A stretch of DNA of 64,000 nucleotides from a virus. Its lineage: Duplodnaviria; Heunggongvirae; Uroviricota; Caudoviricetes. Within the stretch, counting starts at the first letter, position 1, and the number at the start of each line of letters is the position of its first letter. The translations under genes and the position numbers were made by a program. Below, piece by piece: positions 21,655 to 60,330 of this stretch. The notes below the pieces were generated by a model that had not been told where the DNA came from, made no database searches, and saw nothing but the letters and a program-made list of their open reading frames with translations. Where the stretch lies: IMG/VR virus record IMGVR_UViG_3300026980_000004; one strand, 5' to 3'.

Positions 21655-21712
21655 AACTATTTGTATATTATATGCAAATATAATGTTTTTTATTGAAAAT
21701 GTATTTATATGT

Positions 21713-22450
21713 ATGAAAATTATTTCTATAATTAATGAAGAGATTTCTTCTATATTAGGTGAGAATAAATTAGAAGATAATATATCATTTACAGATACAC
21801 TACAATTTAAGAATTGGTTTGGTAATTCTAAGGTAGTCGATAAAGAAGGTAATCCATTACCCGTATATCACGGTAGTCCAGTTGGTGGTATAGAAAATTT
21901 CAAGAATAAGGATGGTGTTATCGAAGTTTTATCAAGTGGGTTGAAAGAATATGGTATTTTCTTTACAACAAATATTGAGTTAGCTAAATTATATAAAGAA
22001 AATAGAAAATTATCACCAGAATATATTAATAATATTAAAAAAGAGATAGTAAAATTACAGAATATACAGAATGATACAAGAAACAGTAAAGAATATTATG
22101 AATATAACGATATGATTGAAAAATTAAAGAGGAAATTAAGAGGTGAAATATATCAGTCATATTTAAAAATTGTAAATCCTTTTATATTTGATGCTAAAGG
22201 TAAGGATGGATATTATGGTTGGAAAGAAGCCAAGATTGATATTGGTTATAAAACAGCTGTTGGTTTCGATGCTATTGAAGCTGTTGCAGGATATAATTCA
22301 ATGTATAAATCCAATTATGATGGGATTATTGCAAAAAATATAATTGATTTTCACACGTATGGTAGTGATGATCCAAAACATAAAAATTTTCACGGAGATG
22401 CTTATGTAGTTTTTTCACCATCACAAATTATGATTGAAAAGGAAATTTAA
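21713..22450 (+). CDS. polyvalent-protein-type ADP-ribosyltransferase-like domain protein
   Basis: FKNWFGNSKVVD..GNPLPVYHGS...GIFFTTN...YDGII...YVVFSPSQI; leader MKIISIINEE; GTATTTATA at 21701. Confidence 0.7.
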   Translation: MKIISIINEEISSILGENKLEDNISFTDTLQFKNWFGNSKVVDKEGNPLPVYHGSPVGGIENFKNKDGVIEVLSSGLKEYGIFFTTNIELAKLYKENRKLSPEYINNIKKEIVKLQNIQNDTRNSKEYYEYNDMIEKLKRKLRGEIYQSYLKIVNPFIFDAKGKDGYYGWKEAKIDIGYKTAVGFDAIEAVAGYNSMYKSNYDGIIAKNIIDFHTYGSDDPKHKNFHGDAYVVFSPSQIMIEKEI

Positions 22451-22456
22451 AATAAA

Positions 22457-23137
22457 ATGAAAAAGGATATTAAGGAAGTAAAGAATAAAAAAAATAGAAT
22501 AAAGGGTATTATGGGTTATCCTATTTTGGGTGTTAATTATTTAAATAGTGATTCTGATGGAAGTGGTGAATCATCTGGTGATGGGGGTGGTATGGGTGAG
22601 TCCAAAGTAATAGATATTGTTAAGATGTTAGTTGAGGAAGTATTATCTGAAATGCCAAGGGATTTTGATGAGAATATGTTAACCTTCGATAAAATACCTA
22701 AGCAGATTTTAGATAATTATTATAAAAATATTACGATTAGTGTAGCATTCGTAAAAAAAGATGGTAGTATTAGACACATGGCATTTAGAAAAAAACTAAA
22801 TGCATATATTAGGAGTACAAACGAAAAGACTGAACTACAGTCAAATATTTTACAGAACAATAATTTATTGCAAGTTTACGACACTAATTTATTTATTAAA
22901 GCAAAAAAAGAGGGTAAAGACCCTAATATGGCAGCAAGAAGTTCATTCAGGAGGGTTACAATGGATAACGTATTGGGTTTTCTGACGGGTGGTAAGTTTT
23001 ATGATGCAAGGGGTATTAATAAAATAAAGGAAAGATATGGGGAAGATGTTTATAATAGTTTAACACCAGGAATGAAGAAAGCCATGCTTAAAGAAATTGA
23101 ATATATTGATGGTGAACTTAATTCTGGTGAAAAGTAA
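22457..23137 (+). CDS. WYL_2/SH3-like beta-barrel protein
   Basis: VAFVKKDGSIRHM...LQVYD...SFRRVTMDNV; Gly/Ser linker and LVEEVLSE in the N-terminus. Confidence 0.55.
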   Translation: MKKDIKEVKNKKNRIKGIMGYPILGVNYLNSDSDGSGESSGDGGGMGESKVIDIVKMLVEEVLSEMPRDFDENMLTFDKIPKQILDNYYKNITISVAFVKKDGSIRHMAFRKKLNAYIRSTNEKTELQSNILQNNNLLQVYDTNLFIKAKKEGKDPNMAARSSFRRVTMDNVLGFLTGGKFYDARGINKIKERYGEDVYNSLTPGMKKAMLKEIEYIDGELNSGEK

Positions 23138-23339
23138 AATGTCTCCAATGTGTTTCATTTAAATCCACATCATCTTCATAAATATATTTAATATTAAATA
23201 AAATTTCAACACACTTTGCAAGTTCAAATGTTGTTATATCTTCTTTTGGATTCCAAGATACGTTGAGTGGTTTTTTTAATTCTATACCAATTCCAGTATT
23301 TACAATAATTCTATTTTCTCCTTTTTCTATATTTTTCAT
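23118..23339 (-). CDS. hypothetical protein
   Basis: 73 aa ORF. Confidence 0.6.
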   Translation of the reverse strand: MKNIEKGENRIIVNTGIGIELKKPLNVSWNPKEDITTFELAKCVEILFNIKYIYEDDVDLNETHWRHFTFHQN

Positions 23340-23377
23340 GGTTAAATAATTTTATTTACAAAAATATAAAAAATTTT

Positions 23378-24175
23378 TTAATTATCAATAACTTTTTCAT
23401 ATTTTAAATACCAATATTTGTATAATGCTTTTAATAATTTTTTTCTATCTTTTATATCATCAATTTTATTGAGTTCAATTATTTCCGAGGATTTGAAATC
23501 GTCAAAAAATTTATGTATTCCTATATTTTTTAAATAGTTATCATTTTTCGATGATATGTATTCAGAAAATCTAGCCCAATATTCATGTGGTAAATTTAAA
23601 TATTGGCTTAACAATTCATTATCAATATTTGTTTTATTTGCTTTATTTTTATAGTATTCAATAGATTTTTTATCGGTATCAAATTTTGCTTTAGATTTAA
23701 AATCATCAAAAGCATGTTGTAATTCATGTACTAGTGTTGTTTTTGTGGTTTGATTTAAAACTTTTACTAATTTATCAACTGTAAATTCACCTGTATTGTT
23801 AACGATTTTTAAAAAATATTTAAATGATTTATCATCGTGATATAAATTAATATACGGATTTTCTCTATTTTTAGAATATGAACCTTTTGCTGTTAAGTTT
23901 TCAGTAAGGACAAAATTAATTGTGATATCATATTCTGGTTTATTTAATATTCTTTCAATAAATGGTTTGATAATATTAAATTGATCAACCAGTTCTTTAT
24001 TATCCATAAATAAATCATAAGAAAGATCCATTAAATAAAATCTTTCAAAATTTTTATTACGATTTAAATAATATTTTACAATATTTATATTTAATTCTGC
24101 AATTTTTTTTATAATTAAATCAGCTAATTTAACTAATTCATTAACTTCTCTATAACCTTCATTAATATTTTTCAT
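23378..24175 (-). CDS. putative zincin metallopeptidase
   Basis: LVHELQHAFD (HExxH) with downstream PHEYWAR; GTATTTATA upstream. Confidence 0.7.
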   Translation of the reverse strand: MKNINEGYREVNELVKLADLIIKKIAELNINIVKYYLNRNKNFERFYLMDLSYDLFMDNKELVDQFNIIKPFIERILNKPEYDITINFVLTENLTAKGSYSKNRENPYINLYHDDKSFKYFLKIVNNTGEFTVDKLVKVLNQTTKTTLVHELQHAFDDFKSKAKFDTDKKSIEYYKNKANKTNIDNELLSQYLNLPHEYWARFSEYISSKNDNYLKNIGIHKFFDDFKSSEIIELNKIDDIKDRKKLLKALYKYWYLKYEKVIDN

Positions 24176-24234
24176 ATAATTAATATATATAATATAAATA
24201 CATTATATCTGTATTTATATTATATATAAAAGCG

Positions 24235-24717
24235 ATGGATTTAATTAAAATAATAAAAGAGGAATACAATAAACTTGGAAGGGGTGCATTTGGTAGTGTA
24301 TATAAAAAGAATGGTTTTGCACATAAATTAACTAGTGATTTTGAAGAGGCCGTATTAAGTCAAATAATAAAAGATCGTCAACATAAGTTATCGACATTTC
24401 CAAAAATATATAAAATATTTTCGGATAAAAAAATGGATAAATTTGTTATTATAAGAGAATTGGTTCAATCATTGAAAAAACCAACAGAAATTGCTAGAAT
24501 TGATGCTAATATTTATAAAATTAGAAGTTATGTGAATACTGGTAATAAGATATGATTGAGGGATATAGAAAATTCTGGTCTTCCAGATAAATTTATTGAG
24601 TTTATAAAAAATTTACGTGAAGATGTTATTAAATTAAATACTAAATTTTTTATTGATATACATTCTGGTAATATTGGTATTAATAAAAATGGTGACTATA
24701 TATTATTTGATTATTAA
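24235..24717 (+). pseudogene. minimal protein kinase-like gene interrupted by in-frame TGA (24553-24555)
   Basis: LGRGAFGSVY Gly-loop and AHK before the stop; DIHSGN and ILFD in the same frame after it. Confidence 0.75.
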
Positions 24718-24736
24718 TATATACTCACCATTTATT

Positions 24737-25240
24737 TTATTTAATCCATTTTTTTAAATCTGCAGGACTATATTTTATTGATTTAAGTACCTTATGATCA
24801 TCACGTCTAAATACAACCCATTTTCCATTTACATTTTCTTTATATGTCGATACTCCCTTATCTTCATAATTATATATTGTATCATTCGCTTCTGCTTGTG
24901 ATGTACACGCTTTACTCATATTAGATCTATGTACTTCATCGAACATATCATCAAAAATATCCTTCATACCAAATTCTAATACCGCACCAGACAATACATA
25001 TTGTAGGTCACATAAAGCATCTGCGACTTCAACCAAATCTTCGTTAATTATTGCATCTCTTAATTCATTTAATTCCTCTTGAATTAAATCAATTCTTAAT
25101 TTAGCTCTTGATACTTGGGCCAATTGTGGGGTATCTAATACTGGTGCTTTAAATGTTTTTTGAAATTCTTCAACGCTTTTTAAATAATTATTCTTTTTAC
25201 CACTATCCATATTTATGTTGTTAAAATAATATACACTCAT
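24737..25240 (-). CDS. MazG-like NTP pyrophosphohydrolase
   Basis: LRIDLIQEELNEL...VEVADALCDLQYV...FDEVHRSNMSK...KVLK. Confidence 0.85.
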   Translation of the reverse strand: MSVYYFNNINMDSGKKNNYLKSVEEFQKTFKAPVLDTPQLAQVSRAKLRIDLIQEELNELRDAIINEDLVEVADALCDLQYVLSGAVLEFGMKDIFDDMFDEVHRSNMSKACTSQAEANDTIYNYEDKGVSTYKENVNGKWVVFRRDDHKVLKSIKYSPADLKKWIK

Positions 25241-25281
25241 TTTTTTATTTGTTTTTCGTTACAAAGATAATCAAAAAAAAA

Positions 25282-25935
25282 TTAATATGTGTAAATATTT
25301 AAAATTTTATATTCTTTATCTAGTGCCATTAATGCAATTTCAACTTCTTTTAAACATTCGTTTATACCACCACCAGTTAAAACAATATTTGATTTATTTC
25401 TTAAGAAGTCCATTAAATCTGGTATATTAATACAATCACCCGCAAATTCCATTAAATCTCTAATATCTTCATCACCATATTGATTAACAAAATCATCCCA
25501 AAGTTCTTGTTCGTCTAATTCTCTAGAATCATTGATATTATTTTCTATCATGAATTTAATTAAATTTACAATCTGATCATGGTCAATCCCTTCGTCCATA
25601 CAAAATCTAAAAAATGCATATCCTTTATCATAAAATGTTGCATTATTAATTACATCATCATTCAACCCATTTTCATATAACCAATTTATATATTCTTGTT
25701 CACTTGGAAACCCAAGATCTGGACCATTAAATAAAAAAATAATATTATTATTTTGATAATTTTTGTTTAAAAATTCAATCCAATCATTTAGAAAATATTT
25801 AAAACCATCCTCATATTCTGGTTGTATATCAACATTAATAATCGTTTTTCCAGATAAATTTACGGATTCATTAATATATTTTTTTCTTTTTAATTCTTTA
25901 TTATATTCTTCTTTGATAATTTTAGATAATTTCAT
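25282..25935 (-). CDS. isochorismatase/cysteine-hydrolase-like protein with KIIKEEYN leader
   Basis: IINVDIQPEY...IVLTGGGINECL. Confidence 0.55.
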   Translation of the reverse strand: MKLSKIIKEEYNKELKRKKYINESVNLSGKTIINVDIQPEYEDGFKYFLNDWIEFLNKNYQNNNIIFLFNGPDLGFPSEQEYINWLYENGLNDDVINNATFYDKGYAFFRFCMDEGIDHDQIVNLIKFMIENNINDSRELDEQELWDDFVNQYGDEDIRDLMEFAGDCINIPDLMDFLRNKSNIVLTGGGINECLKEVEIALMALDKEYKILNIYTY

Positions 25936-26441
25936 TATTTAGTCATAATTGAACCATAATTTTTAATTTTTTCTACCTCTTTAAAACCATATTTATTTTT
26001 TAAAATATTTACCATAATTGGGTTTATGGCTTCAATTTTAATTGGTAATTTTTCATCTTCGACAATATCATTTCTATATTCATATTCGTTCATTGCTTGA
26101 TCGATTAGAATATAACTCAATCCTTTATTTCTATATTTTTGATCGATGGCAATATCAAAAGAGAATTCATCTAGGTCATTATTAACCCATAATGCGCCAG
26201 CAACTGTTAATGTATCTAGATTTAAAATAATTCCTGTTAATTCTTTATTTCTTAATATACCGATATTTGAATTCTTTGCAATTTCATCAGCTTGATCAGA
26301 TAGATCATAAATATCTAAATCTAAATCGTCTAATTCTTCATTTTCATTATCAAAATCAATTGAAAAATATTTATATTCTTTATTAATATCTTCGGTAATA
26401 ATATTATTATATTCTTCTTTAATTATTTTATTAATATCCAT
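25935..26441 (-). CDS. GNAT acetyltransferase with KIIKEEYN leader
   Basis: FDIAIDQKYRNKGLSYILI (motif A), KYGF; CTATTTATA upstream. Confidence 0.7.
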   Translation of the reverse strand: MDINKIIKEEYNNIITEDINKEYKYFSIDFDNENEELDDLDLDIYDLSDQADEIAKNSNIGILRNKELTGIILNLDTLTVAGALWVNNDLDEFSFDIAIDQKYRNKGLSYILIDQAMNEYEYRNDIVEDEKLPIKIEAINPIMVNILKNKYGFKEVEKIKNYGSIMTK

Positions 26442-26455
26442 ATAATATAAATAGT

Positions 26456-26698
26456 TTACCTAATTATTTCATTAATATTAATATTTCCATTTTCAACCAA
26501 TTCATTAAACCTTTCAAATACTAAATCGAGTGTATCGTATGAATTTAGTTTTTTTGTTTCAATTTGATATTCCAATTCTTTTTTCGAATTTAGCATAAAT
26601 TGAAATATTACATTTGCCATTTCATCTGATTTATTATATCTTTTAAAATCCATTAAATCATCTGGATCAGTTAAATCGAATATTAATTTCGCTTTCAT
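26456..26698 (-). CDS. hypothetical protein
   Basis: 80 aa ORF. Confidence 0.7.
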   Translation of the reverse strand: MKAKLIFDLTDPDDLMDFKRYNKSDEMANVIFQFMLNSKKELEYQIETKKLNSYDTLDLVFERFNELVENGNININEIIR

Positions 26699-26856
26699 AT
26701 CTTTTCTGTTTTAATAATTTCGCACTCAATCCCAAACTTAACATCATTTATTGTTTTAAACATATATATTTTATATGTGACAAATTCATTATCTGCAGTT
26801 ATTTCTGTTATTATATGATCATTAATATTGTTACCTCTTTTTATTGTCGTTTTCAT
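26695..26856 (-). CDS. small hypothetical protein
   Basis: probable start MKTTIKR; fills the operon gap, ATGA-coupled. Confidence 0.5.
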   Translation of the reverse strand: MKTTIKRGNNINDHIITEITADNEFVTYKIYMFKTINDVKFGIECEIIKTEKI

Positions 26857-27322
26857 TATCTCTACATTTTTCACATAAATTATATATCCAATATTTACCA
26901 AATATTTCTACATTTTCTTTTGAACCACAAGATTCACATGTATTTTCACATTCTTTAATTGCAGTATTAACAATTTCTTCAACCTCTTGTGAAAAATACC
27001 CATATACCCTTAATTCGGCATATTTATCTTTAATATCTATTACCATTTGATTTTTTGTTAGATATTTTCTAAGTTTATCAAATGAATCGTATTTAACACG
27101 AACAACTGTATTACCTGTGGCCAAATAATGTATTAACCTTTTAACGAATAAAGGTAGATACTTTTGTGGCCACATTTGTTTTTCAATATCAATAATCATA
27201 TTATTGACAATATTTTTCCAACCATTTGGTACTCCAGGATATGAATATCCGATGTGTCTATATTTTTCAAAAATTGTTTTTGGAAAAAATATACTACGAA
27301 TATCTTCTATTAATCTATTCAT
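26831..27322 (-). CDS. hypothetical protein with C-terminal Zn ribbon
   Basis: IKDKYAELRVY...TCESCG...LCEKC. Confidence 0.75.
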   Translation of the reverse strand: MNRLIEDIRSIFFPKTIFEKYRHIGYSYPGVPNGWKNIVNNMIIDIEKQMWPQKYLPLFVKRLIHYLATGNTVVRVKYDSFDKLRKYLTKNQMVIDIKDKYAELRVYGYFSQEVEEIVNTAIKECENTCESCGSKENVEIFGKYWIYNLCEKCRDNENDNKKR

Positions 27323-27698
27323 TATATTTTTTATAATTATTTAGTAAATCTTCAATATTTTTTTTACCAACTGGATTCATGGAATGTACATAAAATTCTG
27401 GTAATTTAAGATTATTATCCATACAATATTCAATCAAAAACTTTGCACAATCATATCCAGTTTTTTCGTTTATTTTGTTTGAATCATCCCAAAAACTACC
27501 AATTGAATAATAATCATCAGCTAAATCATGGTCGAACGATATAAATTTAGGTAATCCGAGTTTTTTAATATGATTTATGAATTCAACATAGGATCTAACC
27601 ACATCCCATTCTTTTTCTATAAATGGTAAGTATTTGGTATATCCATATGCGTGAATTGGATTACGGATATCGTCTAAAAATAGATATAAATTTTTCAT
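27315..27698 (-). CDS. cyclic-phosphate-processing receiver-like domain protein
   Basis: LFLDDIR...ISFDHDL...TGYDCAKFL...VHSMNPVG. Confidence 0.75.
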   Translation of the reverse strand: MKNLYLFLDDIRNPIHAYGYTKYLPFIEKEWDVVRSYVEFINHIKKLGLPKFISFDHDLADDYYSIGSFWDDSNKINEKTGYDCAKFLIEYCMDNNLKLPEFYVHSMNPVGKKNIEDLLNNYKKYNE

Positions 27699-27735
27699 AA
27701 AACAAAGATAGGAAAAAAATGGAAAAAATAATAAT

Positions 27736-28050
27736 TTATTTTACAAAAACAGGTTTTTTACCTTTAGATTTTGAAACCGCTTTTCTTTTTCTAGAGGTCG
27801 CATTCTTTTTTTCCTTATCTGTCATTTTATTTGCCTTAGCTTGTGGTCTACATTTAGGATATGCTCTTTTACCAGATTTACCTCTTGATTTATCACCTGC
27901 AGATGCACCGCATTCTGGATGTTTACCTGATTTATCTTTTCTGGATATATCTACCCATTTTTCATTATTGAACCATTTTCCGAGTCCGCTATCTTTATAC
28001 ACTTGTTCGTATAATAAATCTTGTATTATTTCTTTGATTTCTTCTTCCAT
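27736..28050 (-). CDS. small basic protein (DUF5872-associated-like)
   Basis: GLGKWFNNEKWVD...ECG...YPKCRP; acidic leader IKEIIQDLLYE. Confidence 0.65.
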   Translation of the reverse strand: MEEEIKEIIQDLLYEQVYKDSGLGKWFNNEKWVDISRKDKSGKHPECGASAGDKSRGKSGKRAYPKCRPQAKANKMTDKEKKNATSRKRKAVSKSKGKKPVFVK

Positions 28051-28241
28051 GTCCCTCCTAATTCTTTATATTTTTTTGCAGCCCAAGCATTTGAATAAGC
28101 ACTGGGATACACTTTAAATTTCTTTTTTGCTTGAGATTTCGCATACGCCCATTTTTGCTTATCGTTCGGTTCATTTTTACCTTCGGTAATCTCAATGATT
28201 TCAATACTTTCTTCTATTATTTTATCCCAATCAGAATTCAT
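28026..28241 (-). CDS. small basic protein (DUF5872-like)
   Basis: AKKKFKVYPSAYSNAWAAKKYKELGG; start MNSDWDKIIEE after CTATTTATA. Confidence 0.65.
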   Translation of the reverse strand: MNSDWDKIIEESIEIIEITEGKNEPNDKQKWAYAKSQAKKKFKVYPSAYSNAWAAKKYKELGGTWKKKSKK

Positions 28242-28261
28242 ATTTTTATATATAAATAGTT

Positions 28262-28385: not shown

Positions 28386-28460
28386 TATATATAAATACTG
28401 AATAAATTTATAAATATCTCAATAAATATCTAATTTTTAAATAAAGTTTTATTATACTTA

Positions 28461-28591: not shown

Positions 28592-29272
28592 TTAGTCATT
28601 TCTTTTTGTTAAAATCCCGTCAATAGCACCATATTCCAATGCTTCTTGTGATGTCAACCAATAATCTCTGTCACAATCCTTTTCAATCTTTTCGTAAGGT
28701 TGTCCTGTATTATGGGAAATTGTTTGGTATAATTCTGTTTTTAATTTATTTATTTCTTTTACGGTAATCTCCATATCAGAAGCTTGCGTTCCTGGGGAAA
28801 TTCCACTCATTGGTTGATGTTGCATTAATCTTGCATTTTTTAATGCAAATCTTTTACCTTTTGTTCCTGATGTTGAAATTACAAAAGCCATTGAAGCTGC
28901 CATTCCTGTTACTATTGTTGATATATCTGGTGTAATATATTCCATAACGTTTTGGATAGAATACCCTGCATGTACTCCGCCCCCTCCTGAATTAATGAGC
29001 ATTTTAATATCTTCTTTTTTGTCAGCATTTTCAAGAAACAATAATTGTGCAACAATAATATTAGCAATATTGTCATCAATTGCCGTCCCCAAAAAAATTG
29101 TTCTATCCATTATCAATCTTGAAAAGACATCAATTTCTCTAAAATTTTGTGGTCTTTCTTCAATTACAGATCTTGTCATATTTTCGATATGAGTTGTATA
29201 TCTGTCAATATTACTACCTGCAATTCCCTGATTATGTACTGCAAATTTTCTAAAATCTTCGTTTATATTCAT
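28592..29272 (-). CDS. clpP: ATP-dependent Clp protease proteolytic subunit
   Basis: DVFSRLIMDRTIFLG, IVAQLLFLE, GMAASMA (Ser), MQHQP (His), DRDYW (Asp). Confidence 0.95.
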   Translation of the reverse strand: MNINEDFRKFAVHNQGIAGSNIDRYTTHIENMTRSVIEERPQNFREIDVFSRLIMDRTIFLGTAIDDNIANIIVAQLLFLENADKKEDIKMLINSGGGGVHAGYSIQNVMEYITPDISTIVTGMAASMAFVISTSGTKGKRFALKNARLMQHQPMSGISPGTQASDMEITVKEINKLKTELYQTISHNTGQPYEKIEKDCDRDYWLTSQEALEYGAIDGILTKRND

Positions 29273-32140: not shown

Positions 32141-33247
32141 TTATTGTTTTTCGTATTTTGGTTTTTCAAATTTTGGTTTAACCAAATCCCATATTAATTT
32201 ATTTTCAAGATCTTTATTTTTATCCCACATTGCAAATAAAATTCCATGATATTTTTTATCATAAGATTTCTTTATATAAATTGCAAAGTCTTTTTTAGTT
32301 GGTTCTGGATATATATCATTATATTTACCGTATCTAAAATAATCATGTGTTTTACCCAAATAATTATATACAGAATAATATGCATAATTTAAATCTTTAA
32401 TTTTATTTTTAACCCATGCATCAAATTCATCTGGTACATTTTCGAGTAGAGATTCAATTTTTTTACCATCTTTTAAATATTCCCAAATATCATATGTTGT
32501 TATATTTGTAACAATTCTATGTAATCTAACATATTCTTCATATTTCATTTTTAGTCTGAAACCAGATTTAAATCTGATAACAAAACCTTCTCTATTATCA
32601 CCGTTATATATATTTCTTAAATTAGTATAATCATTAATACCATCATATTTTTTCACTACATCAAGAAATCCAACTTCTTTTTGAAAAAAATCAGATGCGA
32701 GTGGTTGTATATTAACCTCAATACCTCTTTTAGAGTCTATTAAACCAAGAAGAACCAATCTTTCTTTATCATAATTAACAACAATTCTATTCCAATGTGA
32801 GCAATATTCGAATATATATGTATGTCCTTCGTTATCTAACTTTTCATCATATTTTAATTCATAAAATAATTTTTCTGCTTCTATTGCATAATCAGATGTA
32901 AATGATCCTCTTGAACAAATAATCCAATTATTATTATATTGAAATGCCAATATTAGAGAACCATCTAATTTTTCAAAAACCTCAAATGGTTCATTTGGAA
33001 TTTCTTCAGGTTTTAATTCTTCAAGATTAAAGAATTTCTTAAAACCCCTTGCAACAATATTTCCATTATTATCTGTAACTAACGCTCTACAATTTAGGGT
33101 AATATCATCCCATTTAGAGTCGTATTGACAAGTTCTAGTATAATTCCAGATATATAATGGTAATGATGGGTGTGATTGTTTCTGAATCAACCCATCATTC
33201 TCATATTTTCTTAAAACATCGATATTTATTAAATTACCTAAGTCCAA
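32141..33247 (-). CDS. T4 Rnl1-like RNA ligase
   Basis: CRAL..ARGFKKFFN, EKLDGSL (motif I), SRGSF, FEY, EGFVI, RLKMKYEEY. Confidence 0.9.
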   Translation of the reverse strand: MDLGNLINIDVLRKYENDGLIQKQSHPSLPLYIWNYTRTCQYDSKWDDITLNCRALVTDNNGNIVARGFKKFFNLEELKPEEIPNEPFEVFEKLDGSLILAFQYNNNWIICSRGSFTSDYAIEAEKLFYELKYDEKLDNEGHTYIFEYCSHWNRIVVNYDKERLVLLGLIDSKRGIEVNIQPLASDFFQKEVGFLDVVKKYDGINDYTNLRNIYNGDNREGFVIRFKSGFRLKMKYEEYVRLHRIVTNITTYDIWEYLKDGKKIESLLENVPDEFDAWVKNKIKDLNYAYYSVYNYLGKTHDYFRYGKYNDIYPEPTKKDFAIYIKKSYDKKYHGILFAMWDKNKDLENKLIWDLVKPKFEKPKYEKQ

Positions 33248-35492: not shown

Positions 35493-37274
35493 TTATTTTT
35501 TAATATTATTATCAATTTCATTAATAGATTTTAATGATTTTTCTAATAAATCTTTTGATTTATTTTGTGTCTCTGTATATTCATCAAATAATTTTTTTGT
35601 ATTTTCGAGTATTAAATTTCCTTTTTTATTTGATGATTCACCCATTTCAGGCATGGCTGGTGGCTCAGTTTGTGGACCCTCATCTCCTCCTAATTTTTCT
35701 AATGCGTCTTCACTACTAATTTCTTCACCTTCCGCTGGTTGTGATATTGGTTTTTCCCCAGGTTTTGTACCATACTTTTGGATAATATCTTCAAATACAC
35801 CACTATTTGTAAATAAATTTGTTGCATTTTGTAATTCTTGAATTACGACACGTTCCATCATTTGTTTTTCCAAATCTTTTATAATTTCATCATCACTCCA
35901 ATTTAATATATTTTTCTTTGCCCATGTATGTGATGTTGCTGCCATTCCAGAATCTTGGATAGATGTTAAATCATTAAATAATTGCATCTTATTCTGTAAT
36001 AGTTCAGTTTTTAATAATTCTGCCTGATTTGAAGGTGGTGACAAAGTTAATGAAAAATTATCAAGTTCATCTTCAAAACCAAGTAAATATAAATGAATAA
36101 TTGCGATTTTATTTAATTCTTGAATTATTGATTGTTGAATTCTATTTACCTTTTTTGAAAATCTCATATCCTGTTGCGCAAGATTTTTACCCTCACCCGC
36201 AGTATTTTGATAACCTAAAAACGGTTTGGGAACACCCAATGATGTAAATAAATTATCTCTTAAATATTCAATATCCGCAATTTTATCCAATGATTCACCC
36301 CCAGGTAATGTGTCTATAACTGTACCCGCATTACTATTCCTGACTGGTATGAAATAATCTTCATCGTTACCTAATATATTAAATCTATGATCAATATTAC
36401 CATTTTCTCTTCCAACTTGTGAACTTCTTTTAAATTTTGTTGCAACTTTTTGAATATAACCCTCAATATCATTTACATCTAAATTTCCGACATCTATCTT
36501 AAACACCCTTTTTTCACCAGCACGTAATATACGGTATGACAACATCGCATCTTCGGCCATAATTAATTGTCTCCAAATACGTCTTCCCTTATTTAATATA
36601 CTTGTACCATATGGATAATATTTATCATCACCAGCTAGTCTAAAATGTGCGATTTCCATTGGTGTATATTCCTCACCAGTATCTCTTCTTTTAAACCATA
36701 CCTTTAATTTGCCATTTATTATATCTTCGTGTCTTTCAACTTCGAATACGGGTAATTGTTTAAACATTGTTATTCCTTTGCCCTTTTCTGGTAACATATA
36801 AATAAAATTATCACCATATTTTGCCATAGTTCGAGTCCAAGAAACTAAATTTGTATTTATGTTTATAACTTCATGGAATAGATTCTCCAATACACTTTTA
36901 ATTCTATCAGATTTTGAGTATATATTTAAAATTTTACCATTTTCACCTAGTGTTGTTGCTTCTTCCGCATATAAATCCAAGGCTGCGGCAATCATTGGAT
37001 AGTATTCCATCCCCTCATAATCCATGAATGCTGGTAATCTTTGAGCCTCATATTGCATTGTTCTCTGCAACTGATTTTTCTCAACTTTATAGAATCTATT
37101 ATATAATTCCTGTTGTTGTTGTAAATCGAATTGTTTTTTTAGAACATCATCGGGTGTATCACCCTTTATTATAATTTTCTCTTCTTTCCTACCTAATTCA
37201 CCATCAAAACCACCTTTGAATAAAATAAAATCATTTAATTTATTAAATATTGATTTATTATTTGTATCTGACAT
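35493..37274 (-). CDS. portal protein (T4 gp20-like)
   Basis: AEDAMLSYRILRAGEKRVFKIDVGNL, EDYFIPVR, IDTLPGG, DIEYL..LF..LGVP. Confidence 0.92.
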   Translation of the reverse strand: MSDTNNKSIFNKLNDFILFKGGFDGELGRKEEKIIIKGDTPDDVLKKQFDLQQQQELYNRFYKVEKNQLQRTMQYEAQRLPAFMDYEGMEYYPMIAAALDLYAEEATTLGENGKILNIYSKSDRIKSVLENLFHEVININTNLVSWTRTMAKYGDNFIYMLPEKGKGITMFKQLPVFEVERHEDIINGKLKVWFKRRDTGEEYTPMEIAHFRLAGDDKYYPYGTSILNKGRRIWRQLIMAEDAMLSYRILRAGEKRVFKIDVGNLDVNDIEGYIQKVATKFKRSSQVGRENGNIDHRFNILGNDEDYFIPVRNSNAGTVIDTLPGGESLDKIADIEYLRDNLFTSLGVPKPFLGYQNTAGEGKNLAQQDMRFSKKVNRIQQSIIQELNKIAIIHLYLLGFEDELDNFSLTLSPPSNQAELLKTELLQNKMQLFNDLTSIQDSGMAATSHTWAKKNILNWSDDEIIKDLEKQMMERVVIQELQNATNLFTNSGVFEDIIQKYGTKPGEKPISQPAEGEEISSEDALEKLGGDEGPQTEPPAMPEMGESSNKKGNLILENTKKLFDEYTETQNKSKDLLEKSLKSINEIDNNIKK

Positions 37275-37340
37275 ATTGTAAAAACTTTTATATAAATACT
37301 TATGATAATCTCTAAAATCTATATTTTTTTATATTTTTTT

Positions 37341-37362: not shown

Positions 37363-40300
37363 ATGGAATATTGGAAAGATATTAAAATAAAAACTTTTAG
37401 CGGTAAGGTAAAAAAAATACTAGATTTTACACAAGAAGAATTAATTTATGAAAAGGTAAAATGTGCAACAGATCCGATATATGTAATTGAAACATATTTT
37501 AAAATTTTTGACCAGACTAAAAACAATGGTAAGGGTGAAATCGTTCCATTTATATTATTCCCATTTCAAAAAGATTTAGTTAAATCATATGAAAAAAATA
37601 GATTCAATATAACAAATAAATATAGACAGGCTGGTATATCGACAGTCACATGTGCATATTTGGCAACTTATATAGCATTTAACTCTAATAGATCGGTTGC
37701 AATTGTTGCAAATAAATTAGAAACAGCCAGAGATGAATTAATGAAGGATGTGACTGATTTTATTGATATGTTACCACCTTTTTTACATCCGAAAATTGCT
37801 GGTAAGGATGCTGCAAACCATAAAAGATATGGGAATGGGAGTCAGGTAAAGGCATTTGCGACAAATTCATTACGTGGATATACACCAACATTTTTATTTT
37901 GGGATGAATCAGCTTGGTGTGATAATGGTGAGGATTTTTGGACTGGTACTTTACCAACATTATCAACGGGTGGTAATGCTGCACTTGTATCTTGTGTTAG
38001 TAAAGATACTATGGTTTGGTCTGATGATGGATTAAACGAAATGACCGATTTTATTGATTTAAAAAAAACCGATTCCTATGTGATTGATGAATATAATATA
38101 CTTGGAAGATTTAATAAAAGAAAGGGTCATATAATCAAAAACAACGGATTTGGTAAAACAAAAAAAATACTATCAGAACATGTTTCTTTAGAGGGTACTT
38201 TATCTCACAAACTATGGACATATAATAATCACAACGGTAAGATTGGTTATCAACCATTGAATAGAGTTAATAAAGAATCATATATTGCACTTCAATTCGG
38301 CTCAAAATCTTTTGGTACATTTGATACGATTAAATATTTACCCATATTTGCTAGTAGTGACTATTTTAATTATAAATTAACTAATAAATTTTCAAAATTA
38401 TTAGCATTGGTTTATATAAAAGGTAATGTAGTTACAGCAATTAGAAATAGAAAACCATATACAACAGTTACCATAGATAAAATAACTGAATATGATAGGA
38501 ATATCATAAATGAATTTATGGATGAGTTTAACAATGATTACCCAGAATATAAGATATTAGAAAAGGATGTTAAGTTTTCAGACAATACCTATGTTTTAAC
38601 ACATCAATCTGTTACATATATTTTTAATTATCTGGATTTGAATTTTACTGGTGTAAATAATACAATATATTCAAGACCCTTCACAAAACTAATAAAAAAA
38701 TTCAGAGGTGATTTATTATTTACTTTTGCCAAAGAATATATTAACCAAATTGAAGATAAGATAATTCAAGATGGTAAATTTATGGTTAAAATAAATACGA
38801 TCACAATAGGTAGACAAATACAACAAATTTTATTGAATTGGGGTATTGTTTGTGGATATAATGATTATGTTGATTTAACTGGAAAATCTCAGGGTGATAG
38901 ATATTTATCAATTGATTTGGATTATGATTATTTTATGGATAACGATAATTTTGATCATAAATTATTTGACCAATATCTACCATTGGGGATTATGCATAAT
39001 GTCAGAGAATTATTAATTAAAAATAATCTAGAACTACCATTTGGTAAATATACTAAATTTCAATTAATTGATATTGTTGATAGGGTTAAAGATTTAGTAA
39101 ATAAAGATGATCTTGTTGTTATCAGTAGGATATTAGCAAAAGATATATATTGGTCCAAAGTATATAAAACAATAAAAGGATATAATCAAACATATGATTT
39201 TTCATTACCAAACAATGATGATGATTTTTGGGCACATTCTGTTATATATAATGGTATTATTGGACATCAAACACCCAATGGGCTTGATCCTGTTTTTTAT
39301 AAAACATTCAATAATGCAAAGAATGGAATGAATGATTTTATCGCCAATGAATTGTATTGGTATTTAGACCCAAGATATTCAATTGGTTTAAAATGGAAAA
39401 AGAAAAATGATGATGGTGTTGAAATTGAAAAGATTGAAAACGACCCAAAAAAATTTAAGAAATTATTATCGCATGGTTGGTCACCTTGGTCACCTTGGTT
39501 TGAATCGATGTCATCACAATTTAATTATGATAAAAAGCGTATAGCTCAAGAAATTTTAGGGTCATTTTTAGGTTCTGGTAATAATTTTATTGATGAAGTT
39601 CATATTAAAAGAATTGAAGAGGGTGAAATTTGTGATCCAATTAGGATGGAATATGATGACTTTTTTTGGATATGGGAAGATCCGATTAAAGATAAATTAT
39701 ATGTGATGACTGTAGATGTTAGTACTGGTGCTGGTGATGATTTTAGTACAATAATTATATTAAAACAAGAAGAAACACATTTAGAGCAAGTTGCAGAATT
39801 TAAACATAAAGTAAGTCCAGATACATTGGGTGTTATTTCGAATGATTACGGTAAAAGATATAACAATGCATTTGCAATTGTTGATATTACTGGTGGTATT
39901 GGTGCTATGACGGCAAAAACAATGTTAGATTTAGGATATAATAACATGTATTATACTGTAAACAGACATGAACCAACAAAAGAAAAGTTGAGTGATTATC
40001 TAAAAGAAGATGAAAATGGTAAAACATTAGTACCTGGTTTCGTTATAACAACGTCAAATAGAGGTATGGTATTAACCGAAATGAAAAGAGCAATTGAATC
40101 TAGTGAAATTATGATTAAATCATATAGATTGATTTCGGAATTTAAAACATTTATTACAACACCAAACAGTAGAATTGCCGACCACAGGAGAAGTTTTAAC
40201 GATGATTTGATTATTGCATTAGCAATGGGTATATATGTATTTTCATATGATATTAAATCTGTTGGTATTTCAATTGAAAAAACAAAAACAATGTTATCGG

Positions 40301-40428
40301 CAATAACGACAAGTACTAAAGATTATAAAACTGGTGAAGAAATAAACAATAATAACAATAGAACAAATCCAAATAATCATTATGTTGCTAACAACTGGTT
40401 ATTTAAAGGTTTAAAAGGTTTTAGGTAA
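37363..40428 (+). CDS. terminase large subunit with intein
   Basis: KYRQAGIST, FLFWDE, VS|intein|TPNG, AQEI..SFLGSG, VDVSTGAGDDFS, NDDLIIALA. Confidence 0.93.
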   Translation: MEYWKDIKIKTFSGKVKKILDFTQEELIYEKVKCATDPIYVIETYFKIFDQTKNNGKGEIVPFILFPFQKDLVKSYEKNRFNITNKYRQAGISTVTCAYLATYIAFNSNRSVAIVANKLETARDELMKDVTDFIDMLPPFLHPKIAGKDAANHKRYGNGSQVKAFATNSLRGYTPTFLFWDESAWCDNGEDFWTGTLPTLSTGGNAALVSCVSKDTMVWSDDGLNEMTDFIDLKKTDSYVIDEYNILGRFNKRKGHIIKNNGFGKTKKILSEHVSLEGTLSHKLWTYNNHNGKIGYQPLNRVNKESYIALQFGSKSFGTFDTIKYLPIFASSDYFNYKLTNKFSKLLALVYIKGNVVTAIRNRKPYTTVTIDKITEYDRNIINEFMDEFNNDYPEYKILEKDVKFSDNTYVLTHQSVTYIFNYLDLNFTGVNNTIYSRPFTKLIKKFRGDLLFTFAKEYINQIEDKIIQDGKFMVKINTITIGRQIQQILLNWGIVCGYNDYVDLTGKSQGDRYLSIDLDYDYFMDNDNFDHKLFDQYLPLGIMHNVRELLIKNNLELPFGKYTKFQLIDIVDRVKDLVNKDDLVVISRILAKDIYWSKVYKTIKGYNQTYDFSLPNNDDDFWAHSVIYNGIIGHQTPNGLDPVFYKTFNNAKNGMNDFIANELYWYLDPRYSIGLKWKKKNDDGVEIEKIENDPKKFKKLLSHGWSPWSPWFESMSSQFNYDKKRIAQEILGSFLGSGNNFIDEVHIKRIEEGEICDPIRMEYDDFFWIWEDPIKDKLYVMTVDVSTGAGDDFSTIIILKQEETHLEQVAEFKHKVSPDTLGVISNDYGKRYNNAFAIVDITGGIGAMTAKTMLDLGYNNMYYTVNRHEPTKEKLSDYLKEDENGKTLVPGFVITTSNRGMVLTEMKRAIESSEIMIKSYRLISEFKTFITTPNSRIADHRRSFNDDLIIALAMGIYVFSYDIKSVGISIEKTKTMLSAITTSTKDYKTGEEINNNNNRTNPNNHYVANNWLFKGLKGFR
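37993..39270 (+). mobile_element. intein (426 aa) ending in His-Gln, with degenerate LAGLIDADG region
   Basis: CVSKDT block A, GTLSHKLW block B, TYDFSLP...HSVIYNGIIGHQ|T blocks F/G. Confidence 0.9.
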
Positions 40429-50169: not shown

Positions 50170-52845
50170 ATGTCTGATTTTATTTTCGTTTCCCCTGGCG
50201 TAAAATTTAGGGAAAGAGATTTATCATTTGTTATTAGAAATGTCGGATTAACCACATTGGGTTTGGTTGGTGAAACACAAAAAGGACCAGCCTTTGAACC
50301 GATTTTTGTTTCAGATAAAAATGATTTTAGAAAAAAATTCGGTAGACGATCTATCGAAAAAATAGGTAATAATTTAAAATATCAATTACCATATGCTGCT
50401 GATTCTTATTTATCAGAATCAAATCAATTATATGTAACCAGAGTTCTTGGACTATCAGGATATGATGCTGGTGATGGTTGGGCACTAACAGTTAGTTCAA
50501 ACGTAGATCCAAGTACTTTGGATGATGGTGTTTCTACTACTGGTACAACAACGTTTACAAATTCTACATATCAGGGTACTACAGTTCCATCAGTGACTGG
50601 TGTAACCACAACAATTGAACCAGTTTATACTAGGTCAGGTAATACATTTACAGGTACACAAATTGATTTTGAGGTTACTAGTTTCGATGATCAAACATTA
50701 TCATCTGGTGATATTAGTTTTACTGCGACAACGTTTACTGGTACACCATATACCGATGTTGATGGTTTAGTTGTAGGTATTATTAGATCAAGAGCTAGTT
50801 ATGTGGATGAATCTTTGGTATTTACTGCAACGGGTGTTAGTGTTAGTGAATCTTCTGAAGTTGTAGATGATTTATCCAAACCATTTACTATCACTGCAAC
50901 AGGTGCAACATTAACTGAAGATTATACAGTTTCATTAATCGATACTTCAAGAGATTATATCGTTAACGTTTTGGGTAACAAACCAAAGGGTAAAAATACG
51001 ATGTTATATGTTGAATCTATCTATCCTGAAACAATTAAAAAATTATTAGCCGATAAAAGAATATACGGTTTAAATAGTACATTGGTTAAATTAACAACAA
51101 ATGTATTTTCAGATTATTCAGAACAATATACAACACCAGAAACACCTTGGGTTGTTTCAGAACTAAAAGGTAATGTAGTTGAAAGATTATTCAGATTTGT
51201 ATCAATATCTGATGGTAATTCAGCAAATAAGGAAATTAAAATAACCATTCAAAATATCGATCCGATTACAAAAGAATTTGATGTTGTTATTAGAGATTTT
51301 AATGATACTGATGATAATGTGAGTGTATTAGAATCATTCACAAGATGTTCGTTTAATCCAGCATTGAATAACTTTGTTGGTAAAAGAATTGGTACTATCG
51401 ATGGTGTGTATGAATTAAAAAGTTCATATGTTATGTTGGAACTAAATGATGAAGCATCAATTACATCATTCCCTGCTGGTTTTGAAGGATATTCATTAAG
51501 AAGTTTTTCAGAAACAAATACAGGTTCCAGTACTGCAGTTGCACCGATTATGTTATATAAAACAAATTATGAAAACACAGATAAATTAAGAAAAACATAT
51601 TTGGGTATTAGTGAAAACGCATTTGATTCGGATTCTAATACTGGTTCTAAATTAGATCAGAATATGTTCAATTATTTTGGTAAAATACGTACAGCTGGAT
51701 CATTGATTAAAACAAAAGGATTCCACATGGATTCTGATGCAACAGCTAGTGAATATATAGATGGTTTATACTCTATCGGTTCTTTCGAAGTTGGTAGTGA
51801 TAGTTTTAAAAATTCTACCGATGTTAGTAATGAGAATAATGTATATTTTGATAAGGTTGCAAGAAAATTCACATTTGTACCTTATGGTGGTTTCGATGGT
51901 TGGGATGAGCATAGAACACAAAGAACAAATACTGAATTATATAAAGAGGGTGGTATTTATGGTTCTGCAACAAATGATTACATAGCATATTTAAACGGAA
52001 TTAGAACATTTGATAATCCAGAAGAAATAACAATAAACCTATTTGCAACACCTGGTTTAAATTTCTCAGATCATATTTCATTAGTTAATGAAGCAATCGA
52101 AATGATTGAAGTTGATCGAGGTGATTCATTATATGTTATTGATGCACCAGATTTAACACCAACAAGTGGTTATGCAGAAGATATTGTTGGTTTATTGGAT
52201 ACAACTTCAATAGACTCTAACTATTCGGCAACATTTGGTCCTTGGATTGAAGTTGATGATTCAGACAATGCAACCAGAGTGTTTATACCACCAACTGGTG
52301 AAGTTGTTAAAGCAATCGCATTTACCGATAAAACCAAATTTCCTTGGTTTGCACCAGCTGGATTAACAAGGGGTGCAACTTCAGCCAGAAGAGCCAGAAA
52401 AACTCTTAAAACATCTGAAAGAGATGTTATGTATTCGGGTAGAATTAATCCATTAACAACATTTCCAAATGTTGGTGTTGCAATCTTCGGACAAAAAACA
52501 CTACAAATAAGAGAAAGTTTATTGGATAGAATTAATGTTAGAAGATTGTTACTTGAAGTTAGAAAATTAGTATCAAATATTGCAATACGTTTAGTTTTCG
52601 AACAAAACGATCAGGCTGTTAGAGATGAATTTATTTCAAAAGTAACACCAATTCTTGATAATATCAGAAGAGAAAGAGGTTTATTTGATTTTAGAGTCAT
52701 TATGGATGATACATTAAATACACCAGAATCTGTTGATAGAAATGAATTGTATGGTGAAATATTGTTGAAACCAATCGCAGCTGTAGAATTTATTGGTATT
52801 GGATTTACTATTACACCTAGTGGTGCATCTTTTGATAATATTTAA
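50170..52845 (+). CDS. tail sheath protein
   Basis: FVSPGVKFRERDLS, GETQKGPAF, PWFAPAGLTRG, INP, IFGQKTL, RINVRRLL. Confidence 0.95.
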   Translation: MSDFIFVSPGVKFRERDLSFVIRNVGLTTLGLVGETQKGPAFEPIFVSDKNDFRKKFGRRSIEKIGNNLKYQLPYAADSYLSESNQLYVTRVLGLSGYDAGDGWALTVSSNVDPSTLDDGVSTTGTTTFTNSTYQGTTVPSVTGVTTTIEPVYTRSGNTFTGTQIDFEVTSFDDQTLSSGDISFTATTFTGTPYTDVDGLVVGIIRSRASYVDESLVFTATGVSVSESSEVVDDLSKPFTITATGATLTEDYTVSLIDTSRDYIVNVLGNKPKGKNTMLYVESIYPETIKKLLADKRIYGLNSTLVKLTTNVFSDYSEQYTTPETPWVVSELKGNVVERLFRFVSISDGNSANKEIKITIQNIDPITKEFDVVIRDFNDTDDNVSVLESFTRCSFNPALNNFVGKRIGTIDGVYELKSSYVMLELNDEASITSFPAGFEGYSLRSFSETNTGSSTAVAPIMLYKTNYENTDKLRKTYLGISENAFDSDSNTGSKLDQNMFNYFGKIRTAGSLIKTKGFHMDSDATASEYIDGLYSIGSFEVGSDSFKNSTDVSNENNVYFDKVARKFTFVPYGGFDGWDEHRTQRTNTELYKEGGIYGSATNDYIAYLNGIRTFDNPEEITINLFATPGLNFSDHISLVNEAIEMIEVDRGDSLYVIDAPDLTPTSGYAEDIVGLLDTTSIDSNYSATFGPWIEVDDSDNATRVFIPPTGEVVKAIAFTDKTKFPWFAPAGLTRGATSARRARKTLKTSERDVMYSGRINPLTTFPNVGVAIFGQKTLQIRESLLDRINVRRLLLEVRKLVSNIAIRLVFEQNDQAVRDEFISKVTPILDNIRRERGLFDFRVIMDDTLNTPESVDRNELYGEILLKPIAAVEFIGIGFTITPSGASFDNI

Positions 52846-59874: not shown

Positions 59875-60330
59875 TTAATTGTTTTTAAAATATAAGTCAC
59901 CAACTCTTTTATTAGTTTTAAGTACGCCCATTAATATTTTAGACATTCCTTTATCATTTGGATTGTATTCTGGTCTTTTACTTTGTGAAAATTTCCCAGT
60001 ACCTGGTTTAACATCGATTATTCTGTCTAATCTAAAAATTCTCCATCCATTTGGTAATGCTTTTAATGGATCAATACCATCACCATCTGGTGTTAATGAT
60101 GCAGTCCTACCTAATTGTAATGCACGTATTACTAATGGTTTTTGTTTTGTATTATATATACCCATTAGGTATGGTTCTATTAATCTCCAACCTGGTTTAT
60201 TCTCTCCTTCTCCCTTGTATAATATTCTAATAGACATATTCATCTTTATAGCATTTTCGATGATATATCTAATATTTTTAGCTTTCGCCTCTAATAATAA
60301 ATCCTCATATATATTAAATATATTAAGCAT
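59875..60330 (-). CDS. WYL-domain protein
   Basis: IRILYKG...GWRLIEPYLMG...GWRIFRLDRI; leader ending LLLE. Confidence 0.75.
   Translation of the reverse strand: MLNIFNIYEDLLLEAKAKNIRYIIENAIKMNMSIRILYKGEGENKPGWRLIEPYLMGIYNTKQKPLVIRALQLGRTASLTPDGDGIDPLKALPNGWRIFRLDRIIDVKPGTGKFSQSKRPEYNPNDKGMSKILMGVLKTNKRVGDLYFKNN

Follow-up and report, generated by a model that had tools for sequence, protein, structure and literature searches.

A shared N-terminal leader on unrelated proteins of a giant T4-like phage, probably a capsid-targeting propeptide

Several proteins of unrelated families encoded in one stretch of uncultured phage DNA begin with almost the same peptide, which raises the question of what such a shared leader is for. 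The stretch, 64,000 nucleotides (nt) of the IMG/VR virus record IMGVR_UViG_3300026980_000004 and referred to here as the window, comprises bases 31971-95970 of one 265,845-bp contig, which has direct terminal repeats, was rated 100% complete and has a GC content of 26%. Its source is a giant, uncultured, T4-like phage of Bacteroidota; the gene set used for the whole genome was a greedy set of open reading frames (ORFs) amounting to 385 genes. As argued below, the leader, M-x-[IL]-x-K-I-I-K-E-E, is probably a capsid-targeting propeptide that resembles the capsid-targeting sequence (CTS) of T4 and is carried by solo effector domains of the type known from polyvalent proteins.

Within the window, the leader in its canonical form is carried by three proteins (lengths in amino acids, aa):

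24235..24717, plus strand: kinase-like protein, 160 aa when read through a TGA codon (PHROG 18305 'kinase', E 6.4e-10 with the TGA read through)
25282..25935, minus strand: isochorismatase/nicotinamidase-like protein (cysteine hydrolase fold), 217 aa, with sites IKE9 and INE23|S24
25935..26441, minus strand: GNAT-like protein, 168 aa, with leader MDINKIIKE|E and second site ITE17

The earlier statement that these three unrelated proteins have near-identical N-termini (24235 on the plus strand, 25935 and 26441 on the minus strand) was borne out. They begin with MDLIKIIKEEYNK, MKLSKIIKEEYNK and MDINKIIKEEYNN, respectively, all of the form M-x-[IL]-x-KIIKEEYN. A search with the back-translated KIIKEEYN 8-mer, which tolerated up to 3 mismatches, returned 3 matches in the window, all with 0 mismatches, against an expectation of 0.30. 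The three copies use different synonymous codons and the DNA 5' of their ATG codons does not align, so that it is the peptide which is conserved and not a DNA repeat; a repeat or a mobile gene-start cassette was ruled out on the same grounds.

Genome-wide, IIKEE is the most shared N-terminal 5-mer, occurring in 11 genes, while the runner-up occurs in 3. In total it was observed 13 times where 0.4 were expected, and 11 of the 13 occurrences are N-terminal. Windows scoring at least 24 against KIIKEEYN were found at 12 of 5,005 N-terminal positions as opposed to 12 of 75,394 internal ones. The sequence-only reading was correct about the shared leader and yet incomplete, as most of the leader genes (12 by a strict and about 15 by a loose count in the whole genome) lie outside the window at 206-242 kb of the genome, adjoining the head module, with two directly upstream of this module and six in a single minus-strand operon. 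The 15 listed leader genes all place the Glu of I-x-E (I-K-E, I-N-E or I-R-E) at residue 9 or 10, followed in most of them by a second [LI]xE 5 to 14 residues further on.

Could such N-termini be without function, as a relic of gene-start shuffling or recombination or as a by-product of an AT-rich genome? At 26% GC, K, I, E and N are indeed the commonest residues of the proteome. This reading is nevertheless strongly disfavoured and hardly credible: the excess of IIKEE is almost only N-terminal, the copies differ synonymously and do not share upstream DNA, the leader is restricted to units with a late-type motif (see below), and the same peptide occurs in phages of 24-44% GC on at least 37 cargo clusters.

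Related leaders had also been proposed for other genes of the window, and here the outcome was mixed. The variant MKIISIINEE of the ADP-ribosyltransferase (ART; ATG at 21713), with INE at residues 7-9 and a second site LGE17, is convincing, and both MNSDWDKIIEE of a small basic protein and the short MKNINE of a metallopeptidase-like protein are plausible. The segments IVKMLVEE of a WYL_2-like protein, which is internal, and LLLE of the WYL protein at 60330 are indistinguishable from chance or background. The genes concerned are:

21713..22450, plus strand: ART-PolyVal ADP-ribosyltransferase, 245 aa (Pfam PF18760, E 1.3e-16)
22457..23137, plus strand: WYL_2-like protein in the ART late unit (Pfam PF10902, E 0.0057, below the cut-off), no N-terminal leader; its internal LVEE, a putative site only, follows a Gly/Ser-rich stretch
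23378..24175, minus strand: HExxH metallopeptidase-like protein, N-terminus MKNINE with a short INE6 site
27736..28241, minus strand: two small basic DUF5872-like ORFs (DUF5872 E 3.5e-4 and 5e-3, both below the cut-off)

The INE6 site of the metallopeptidase-like protein is comparable to ITE-6 of T4 Alt (PMC5694885). The upstream ORF of the small basic pair begins with MNSDWDKIIEESIEIIEITE and has several IxE sites, and both ORFs are candidate cargo resembling T4 internal proteins. Between them, the two ORFs match both halves of DUF5872 (profile positions 50-111 and 1-43), as if a single family were present in split or overlapping form.

Outside the window, the leader genes encode:

CCA-adding enzyme, 405 aa (PolyA_pol, E 5e-24), with leader
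ParB-C plus GNAT protein, 401 aa (GNAT PF00583 over the cut-off, ParB PHROGs), with leader
ParB-like protein, 376 aa (Pfam and PHROG scans), with leader
second ART-PolyVal protein, 289 aa (PF18760), with the linker DLIKEEYKSIIKE right after the domain
several further leader proteins of no known family

Together with an NT5C/HAD nucleotidase described below, the tagged cargo set consists of two ART-PolyVal, GNAT-like, ParB-like, kinase-like and isochorismatase-like proteins, the CCA-adding enzyme and the nucleotidase. The cargo is thus largely made up of the domain types of polyvalent proteins, split into solo genes each with its own tag. Mostly one recognisable domain was found per leader protein; possible two-module exceptions are the 289-aa ART-PolyVal protein, the 401-aa ParB plus GNAT protein and a 525-aa protein with an internal KKIIKEES.

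When are these genes expressed? In the 70 nt before gene starts, GTATTTAT was the most enriched 8-mer (37 observed, 3.5 expected), and CTATTTAT was also among the top enriched 8-mers (13 and 1.3, respectively). The motif A(G/C)TATTTATA lies in sense orientation 12-55 nt before the starts of the portal, terminase, sheath, tube, protease and scaffold genes and also before genes of the baseplate region. It likewise precedes the kinase, GNAT, metallopeptidase-like and ART genes and the units holding the remaining leader genes. That leader genes or their operons have (G/C)TATTTATA in common with portal, terminase and sheath, as had been claimed earlier, is therefore real, and the motif is strongly enriched upstream. 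From the company of the structural genes we infer that A(G/C)TATTTATA is a late promoter. It corresponds to TATAAATA of T4 read in reverse and is a different word. Copies before leader genes, and the structural genes that served as reference for the late class, are:

21701..21709, plus strand: late-type motif GTATTTATA, 3 nt before the ART start codon
24193-24201, minus strand: late motif of the metallopeptidase-like gene
24211..24219, plus strand: late-type motif GTATTTATA, starting 24 nt before the kinase ATG
26446-26454, minus strand: late motif CTATTTATA of the GNAT-like gene
28251-28259 and 28390-28398, minus strand: late motifs of the small basic ORFs
35493..37274, minus strand: T4 gp20-type portal (PHROG 213, E 8.7e-60), late-type motif at 37291-37299 on the minus strand
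50170..52845, plus strand: tail sheath (PHROG 23, E 4e-59), late-type motif at 50117

Genes were classed as late if the motif occurred at most 60 nt upstream or if no more than 60 nt separated them from a preceding late gene of their strand; a crude early/late split by TAnnTTTG was dropped as too unspecific in favour of this chain rule. All 12 strict leader genes belong to late-motif units, as compared with 109 of the 373 other genes (Fisher p 6e-7), and the 12 are spread over six independent units. The sequence-only reading had staked itself on the leader not being equally common on non-late genes; it was not found on non-late genes, and the reading therefore stands on this point.

In several genes the late-type motif ends just 3-4 nt before the ATG (21701-21715, 26441-26454; L019, L033). 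If the motif is a -10-like element, the mRNAs would therefore be leaderless or nearly so, and the 5' coding sequence of these leader genes could matter. Furthermore, the Ile codons of the leader are shifted to ATA (0.69 as opposed to 0.41), and the phage has a full-length ClpP (28592-29272). The leader might accordingly be an N-terminal tag for another late function, such as a Clp degron or adaptor site, a docking helix for a chaperone or for cytoplasmic assembly, or a translation enhancer of near-leaderless mRNAs. We consider this rather unlikely. A translation enhancer is disfavoured because the choice of Lys and Glu codons in the leader is as in the remainder of the genes, with all synonymous codons present, because structural late genes with the same abutting motif have no leader, and because leader-like sites also occur at internal positions on which the translation start has no bearing, namely those in head-module proteins and in the linkers of homologues with fused modules. 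A Clp degron is conceivable, given the encoded ClpP, although the ClpP gene lies outside any late-motif unit. In general, a tag for another function leaves unexplained both the invariant IxE at residue 9/10 and the match to the predicted processing site of the capsid protein. A recognition leader as in radical-SAM-dependent, ribosomally synthesised and post-translationally modified peptides was excluded, as PF04055 had zero matches in the complete genome while all 14 of 14 control genomes matched.

The match to the capsid protein leads to the head module, which lies outside the window, is T4-like and comprises a gp21-type prohead protease, an acidic scaffold and a gp23-type major capsid protein. 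In T4, gp21 cuts after the Glu of (L/I)-x-E, and a short N-terminal CTS loads internal proteins into the head and is then removed; these proteins have only the conserved CTS in common, and the CTS also loads foreign proteins (PMC3012670, PMC5694885). The relevant genes here are:

Genome 216175-216870: gp21-type prohead protease (Peptidase_S77 PF03420, E 1.4e-27, over the cut-off)
Genome 214506-215658 (L012:10506-11658), plus strand: 95-aa and 272-aa head-module proteins shortly before the protease, where T4 has gp67/gp68
Genome 215639-216067 (L012:11639-12067), plus strand: 142-aa protein with a second type of leader, just upstream of the prohead protease
Genome 238255-239409 (L013:14255-15409), minus strand: 384-aa NT5C/HAD nucleotidase with the second type of leader, inside the leader operon

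The protease and T4 gp21 share 32% identity, and the NHP, SSRG and Asp blocks are conserved between them in the alignment. From a conserved block (residues 77-106 here, 98-127 in T4), the capsid protein aligned to T4 gp23 without gaps, and the spacing between block and site is 32 residues in both proteins, so that LTE65|A of T4 maps onto IKE44|N here. The predicted maturation site of the capsid protein is, hence, the same I-K-E as in the leader. The scaffold begins with MSKIIE and has AIKEE at residues 21-25; this likeness to the leader parallels that between T4 gp22 (LIAE|A) and the CTS of IPII and IPIII (FIAE|A). Segments of the form K-[IV]-I-K-E-E occur N-terminally in the 95-aa protein and twice in the 272-aa protein, once internally and once at the extreme C-terminus. 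Both are possibly components of the prohead core and the model that the leader imitates. They have an 18-mer, KIKLSELKEIVKKVIKEE, in common (N-terminal in the 95-aa and internal in the 272-aa protein), and the C-terminus of the latter contains a third copy-like, leader-like segment, VIKDEYQRK. Two proteins, the 142-aa protein and the 384-aa nucleotidase, begin with another common leader, which reads KLFE-x-FDKLCGTKLL and continues with KEE or IKE.

Taken together with the T4 model, a route for the tagged enzymes can be proposed. The leader would dock them onto the scaffold or core inside the prohead during head assembly, and the prohead protease would cut after the leader Glu (IKE|E). Several cargoes may also be cut at a second [LI]xE located at a domain boundary, as with INE23|S in the isochorismatase-like protein. 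The freed enzymes would remain in the head and enter the host together with the DNA, where their role is probably early host takeover or counter-defence.

A variant of this route ends inside the head: the leader proteins would enter the prohead and be processed but not injected, acting in the assembling head or on the packaged DNA, or being degraded like the scaffold. The T4 core proteins gp67, gp68 and gp22 have the same kind of sites and are destroyed (PMC5694885), and head-module proteins here contain K[IV]IKEE repeats. The cargoes are, however, folded enzymes whose domain boundary coincides with the putative cut site, which suggests release rather than destruction, and the ART-PolyVal, GNAT, ParB and metallopeptidase families are predicted to be injected in polyvalent proteins (PMC5512222). 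We therefore regard processing without injection as quite improbable.

The domain boundary was seen in the 217-aa isochorismatase-like cargo. Its AlphaFold2 model, computed with 69 homologues, reached a predicted local distance difference test score (pLDDT) of 91 and shows a separate helix at residues 3-19 and the first strand at residues 31-35. An exhaustive VIA-align search returned at the top 28 isochorismatase, nicotinamidase or cysteine-hydrolase chains (Z 8.4-10.8, root mean square deviation about 3 A over 120-135 residues). These alignments begin at model residue 24-28, placing INE23|S24 at the domain boundary. Foldseek against the PDB gave weak rows only for this model, and a Pfam scan of the protein matched no model. 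D36, K104 and C194 are invariant in the 69 homologues and are candidate counterparts of the conserved Asp, Lys and Cys of the family.

Among 1,089 homologues of similar length, the domain is 55-78% identical whereas the first ~30 residues are lineage-specific. By lineage, the leaders read KIIKEEYN, KKLIEHK...LLTES, KEKLLKEQQRNKLLE, NEQIHRIKEMMGL, MIKLKSLLTEE and others. A Glu of [LI]xE is positioned 10-12 residues before the VDIQ strand in 93% of the homologues, as compared with 35-38% in control windows, and the middle residue is free. A further 86 homologues are longer and combine the module, by fusion, with nucleotidyltransferase, Nudix, GNAT, ART-PolyVal or PF18905 modules; of these fused forms 72 were scored, and 94% of them have [LI]xE in the linker immediately preceding the module. 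The leaders of neighbouring genes within +/-10 kb of the cargo were compared in the related contigs. In some loci the cargo leader equals those of unrelated neighbours: L182 has four genes with NEQIHRIKEMMGL, L185 three with MIKLK-x-[LM]L-x-E, and further cases are L156 and L222. A leader similarity of at least 24 was 5x more frequent within a locus than between loci. Thus, one cargo bears different tags across phages and different cargoes bear one tag within a phage, as a phage-specific address label predicts. In a 321-kb relative (L225, record IMGVR_UViG_3300005613_000002), the isochorismatase-like orthologue begins with MKKKKFIAEQ, not KIIKEE, and the tetrapeptide FIAE in this N-terminus is the same as in the CTS of T4 IPII and IPIII.

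How far does the KIIKEE leader itself extend? The pattern M-xxx-KIIKEE gave at least 139 matches in at least 115 IMG/VR stretches. Among the matches listed, up to six leader genes occur per contig (L033), and filtering left at least 66 distinct complete ORFs of at least 70 aa in at least 37 unrelated cargo clusters. Scanning ten cluster representatives identified two ART-PolyVal-like proteins (one over the Pfam cut-off) and one HEAT/LRV repeat protein. The leader consensus among these matches is MN[IL][KR]KIIKEE[ILV], often directly behind a TATTTATA-type motif, and the phages listed range from 24 to 44% GC. Peptidase_S77 was found in 3 of 5 leader-bearing records, both complete ones included. 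One complete genome, of 321 kb, is likewise enriched for this upstream motif (52 compared with 4.8) and has four leader genes, each right behind a copy of it. No leader of the KIIKEE type was found in Flavobacterium phage immuto, the nearest cultured portal relative, and in the literature no paper was found on such large leader-tagged enzyme sets in uncultured T4-like phages.

The earlier idea of a portable capsid-loading tag is thus partly supported. The gp21-type protease, the IxE at residue 9/10 as in T4 IPII and IPIII, the restriction to late-motif units, the IKE at the predicted capsid-protein site, a tag that is portable and lineage-specific over ~1,100 cargo homologues, and the polyvalent-type domains all argue for it. 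Of the enzyme panel proposed along with it, the GNAT-like protein is a weak assignment (Pfam Acetyltransf_15 and Acetyltransf_7, below the cut-off only) and the kinase gene is interrupted. Here, an in-frame TGA (24553-24555) splits the kinase N-lobe from the catalytic-loop part. The leader of this gene, MDLIKIIKE|EYNK, adjoins a Gly-rich loop, and past the TGA the same frame contains, by eye, D-x-H-x-x-N catalytic-loop-like and xFD segments. An alternative genetic code was ruled out: TGA ends 24 of 178 long ORFs, and aragorn detected no suppressor tRNA, finding a single tRNA (Met). As TGA is a normal stop here and no suppressor tRNA was found, the TGA is a recent nonsense mutation, a read-through site or a sequencing error, and the kinase may be a pseudogene. 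No kinase relatives were confirmed in IMG/VR.

Apart from the kinase, several points weigh against capsid targeting. The label 'late' of the motif is based only on its association with structural genes. By tblastn, no homologue of T4 gp55 was detected, nor of gp22, gp67 or gp68, a result that is uninformative for small, fast-evolving proteins. [LI]xE is frequent in a proteome rich in Ile, Leu and Glu, as the 35-38% in control windows illustrates. Beyond IxE, the leader has no sequence similarity to MKTYQEFIAE of T4, and leaders were found to be common to the cargo and its neighbours in only a minority of the related loci (within +/-10 kb). For this uncultured phage, homologues in cultured phages were sought for a single cargo, the isochorismatase-like family, and none was found (tblastn of the 217-aa protein against 50,697 phage records gave zero matches). 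Finally, we know of no experimental precedent for a packaged CCA-adding enzyme or nucleotidase.

A wider and more tentative interpretation, which we regard as possible although doubtful, is that the leader represents one dialect of a lineage-specific 'address code' by which uncultured T4-like phages load a pre-emptive counter-defence kit. Each lineage would have a tag of ~10 residues co-evolving with its scaffold or core and its protease, and an enzyme gene would turn into injected cargo by gaining the tag or by joining via a tag-like linker. In such a kit, the CCA-adding enzyme could act against tRNA-targeting defences, the isochorismatase-like and ART enzymes on NAD/ADP-ribose chemistry, and the nucleotidase and ParB-like nucleases on DNA or signalling nucleotides, with each of them at work ahead of the first phage transcript.

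Should the tag function like that of T4, a sizeable, swappable set of pre-made enzymes, and not the DNA alone, would direct infection by large environmental phages in its first seconds. This set could be read from genomes by its leader, which would provide a rule for predicting virion-delivered effectors in uncultured phages as well as a list of candidate counter-defence enzymes (tRNA repair, NAD-related, ADP-ribosylation, acetylation). It would also yield natural short tags for loading foreign proteins into non-T4 capsids, and the solo genes here and the 'polyvalent' fusions elsewhere would be two packagings of the same cargo.

Further features of the window are:

24737..25240, minus strand: MazG/PRA-PH-type nucleotide pyrophosphohydrolase (Pfam PF01503, E 6.6e-17), no leader; closes the late unit of the GNAT and isochorismatase-like genes
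27315-27698: protein with a cREC_REC (cyclic-phosphate processing receiver) domain (E 9e-23)
28592-29272: ClpP, full-length (Pfam E 1.3e-66)
32141-33247: Rnl-type RNA ligase (PHROG 562, E 4e-68)
37363-40428, plus strand: large terminase, 1,021 aa

The cREC_REC protein and the RNA ligase are located near leader genes and, together with the leader-tagged CCA-adding enzyme, suggest a theme of RNA or tRNA repair. The N-terminus of an 826-aa ORF elsewhere in the genome (257056-259536) resembles, by eye, the N-domain of Clp ATPases. Matches of the terminase to PHROGs are confined to residues 24-263 and 810-955, leaving ~550 middle residues unexplained, and the middle segment could be an intein or another insertion. 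The closest relatives of the portal are those of Flavobacterium, Microcystis and Rhodothermus myoviruses (about 34-38% identity), and blastn of the region gave only five 130-bp matches, no cultured phage being close at the DNA level.

Among known systems, the CTS of T4 is the obvious counterpart. It was reportedly described by Mullaney and Black in 1996; in T4 it heads the internal proteins IPI, IPII, IPIII and Alt and is removed by gp21. Like the T4 sequence, which in IPII and IPIII reads MKTYQEFIAE|A, the leader is N-terminal, about 10 residues long and ends in (I/L)xE (here M-x-x-x-KIIKE|E); it is common to otherwise unrelated proteins, whose expression, late in T4, is predicted to be late here from the motif. 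Both phages have a gp21-type protease within a gp21/gp22/gp23 head module and a scaffold with a leader-like N-terminus. Because the two agree only in the IxE end, the leader can be no closer to the T4 CTS than an analogue or a highly diverged relative. The scale also differs, with at least 12-15 tagged genes here as opposed to a handful in T4. The cargoes here are mostly recognisable enzymes of 17-60 kDa, whereas those of T4 are small basic inhibitor proteins, and in many of the present cargoes the domain boundary coincides with a second site.

Polyvalent proteins of phages and conjugative elements, for which packaging and injection are predicted (PMC5512222; Iyer, Burroughs, Anand, de Souza and Aravind, 2017), have ART, GNAT, ParB-like and metallopeptidase domains as signatures. 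The present set resembles them in its ART-PolyVal (PF18760 twice), GNAT, ParB-like and zincin-like peptidase domains, in its late context and in its predicted delivery with the DNA, and the isochorismatase-like cargo has, as described above, homologues that are fusions with ART-PolyVal, GNAT, Nudix and nucleotidyltransferase modules. In contrast, polyvalent proteins combine 2-15 domains per polypeptide and are released by an embedded peptidase domain, while the proteins here are mostly solo, each with its own leader, and would be released by the prohead protease at [LI]xE.

Jumbo phages such as phiKZ, 201phi2-1 and SPN3US (prohead proteases gp175 and gp245, family S80) also have many head-internal proteins that are cut after Glu, and the SPN3US paralogues gp53 and gp54 have identical N-terminal propeptides (PMC5694885). 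Their motif is, however, (A/S/G)-x-E, the propeptides are long and the proteins are mostly paralogous structural or ejection proteins, whereas the present phage combines a T4-type S77 protease and T4-like head genes with a panel of unrelated enzymes. The leader system is neither a copy of the T4 CTS, to which it has no sequence similarity, nor a polyvalent protein, as its members are mostly single-domain. It is closest to the T4 CTS and gp21 in mechanism and to polyvalent proteins in cargo, and is much enlarged relative to what is known.

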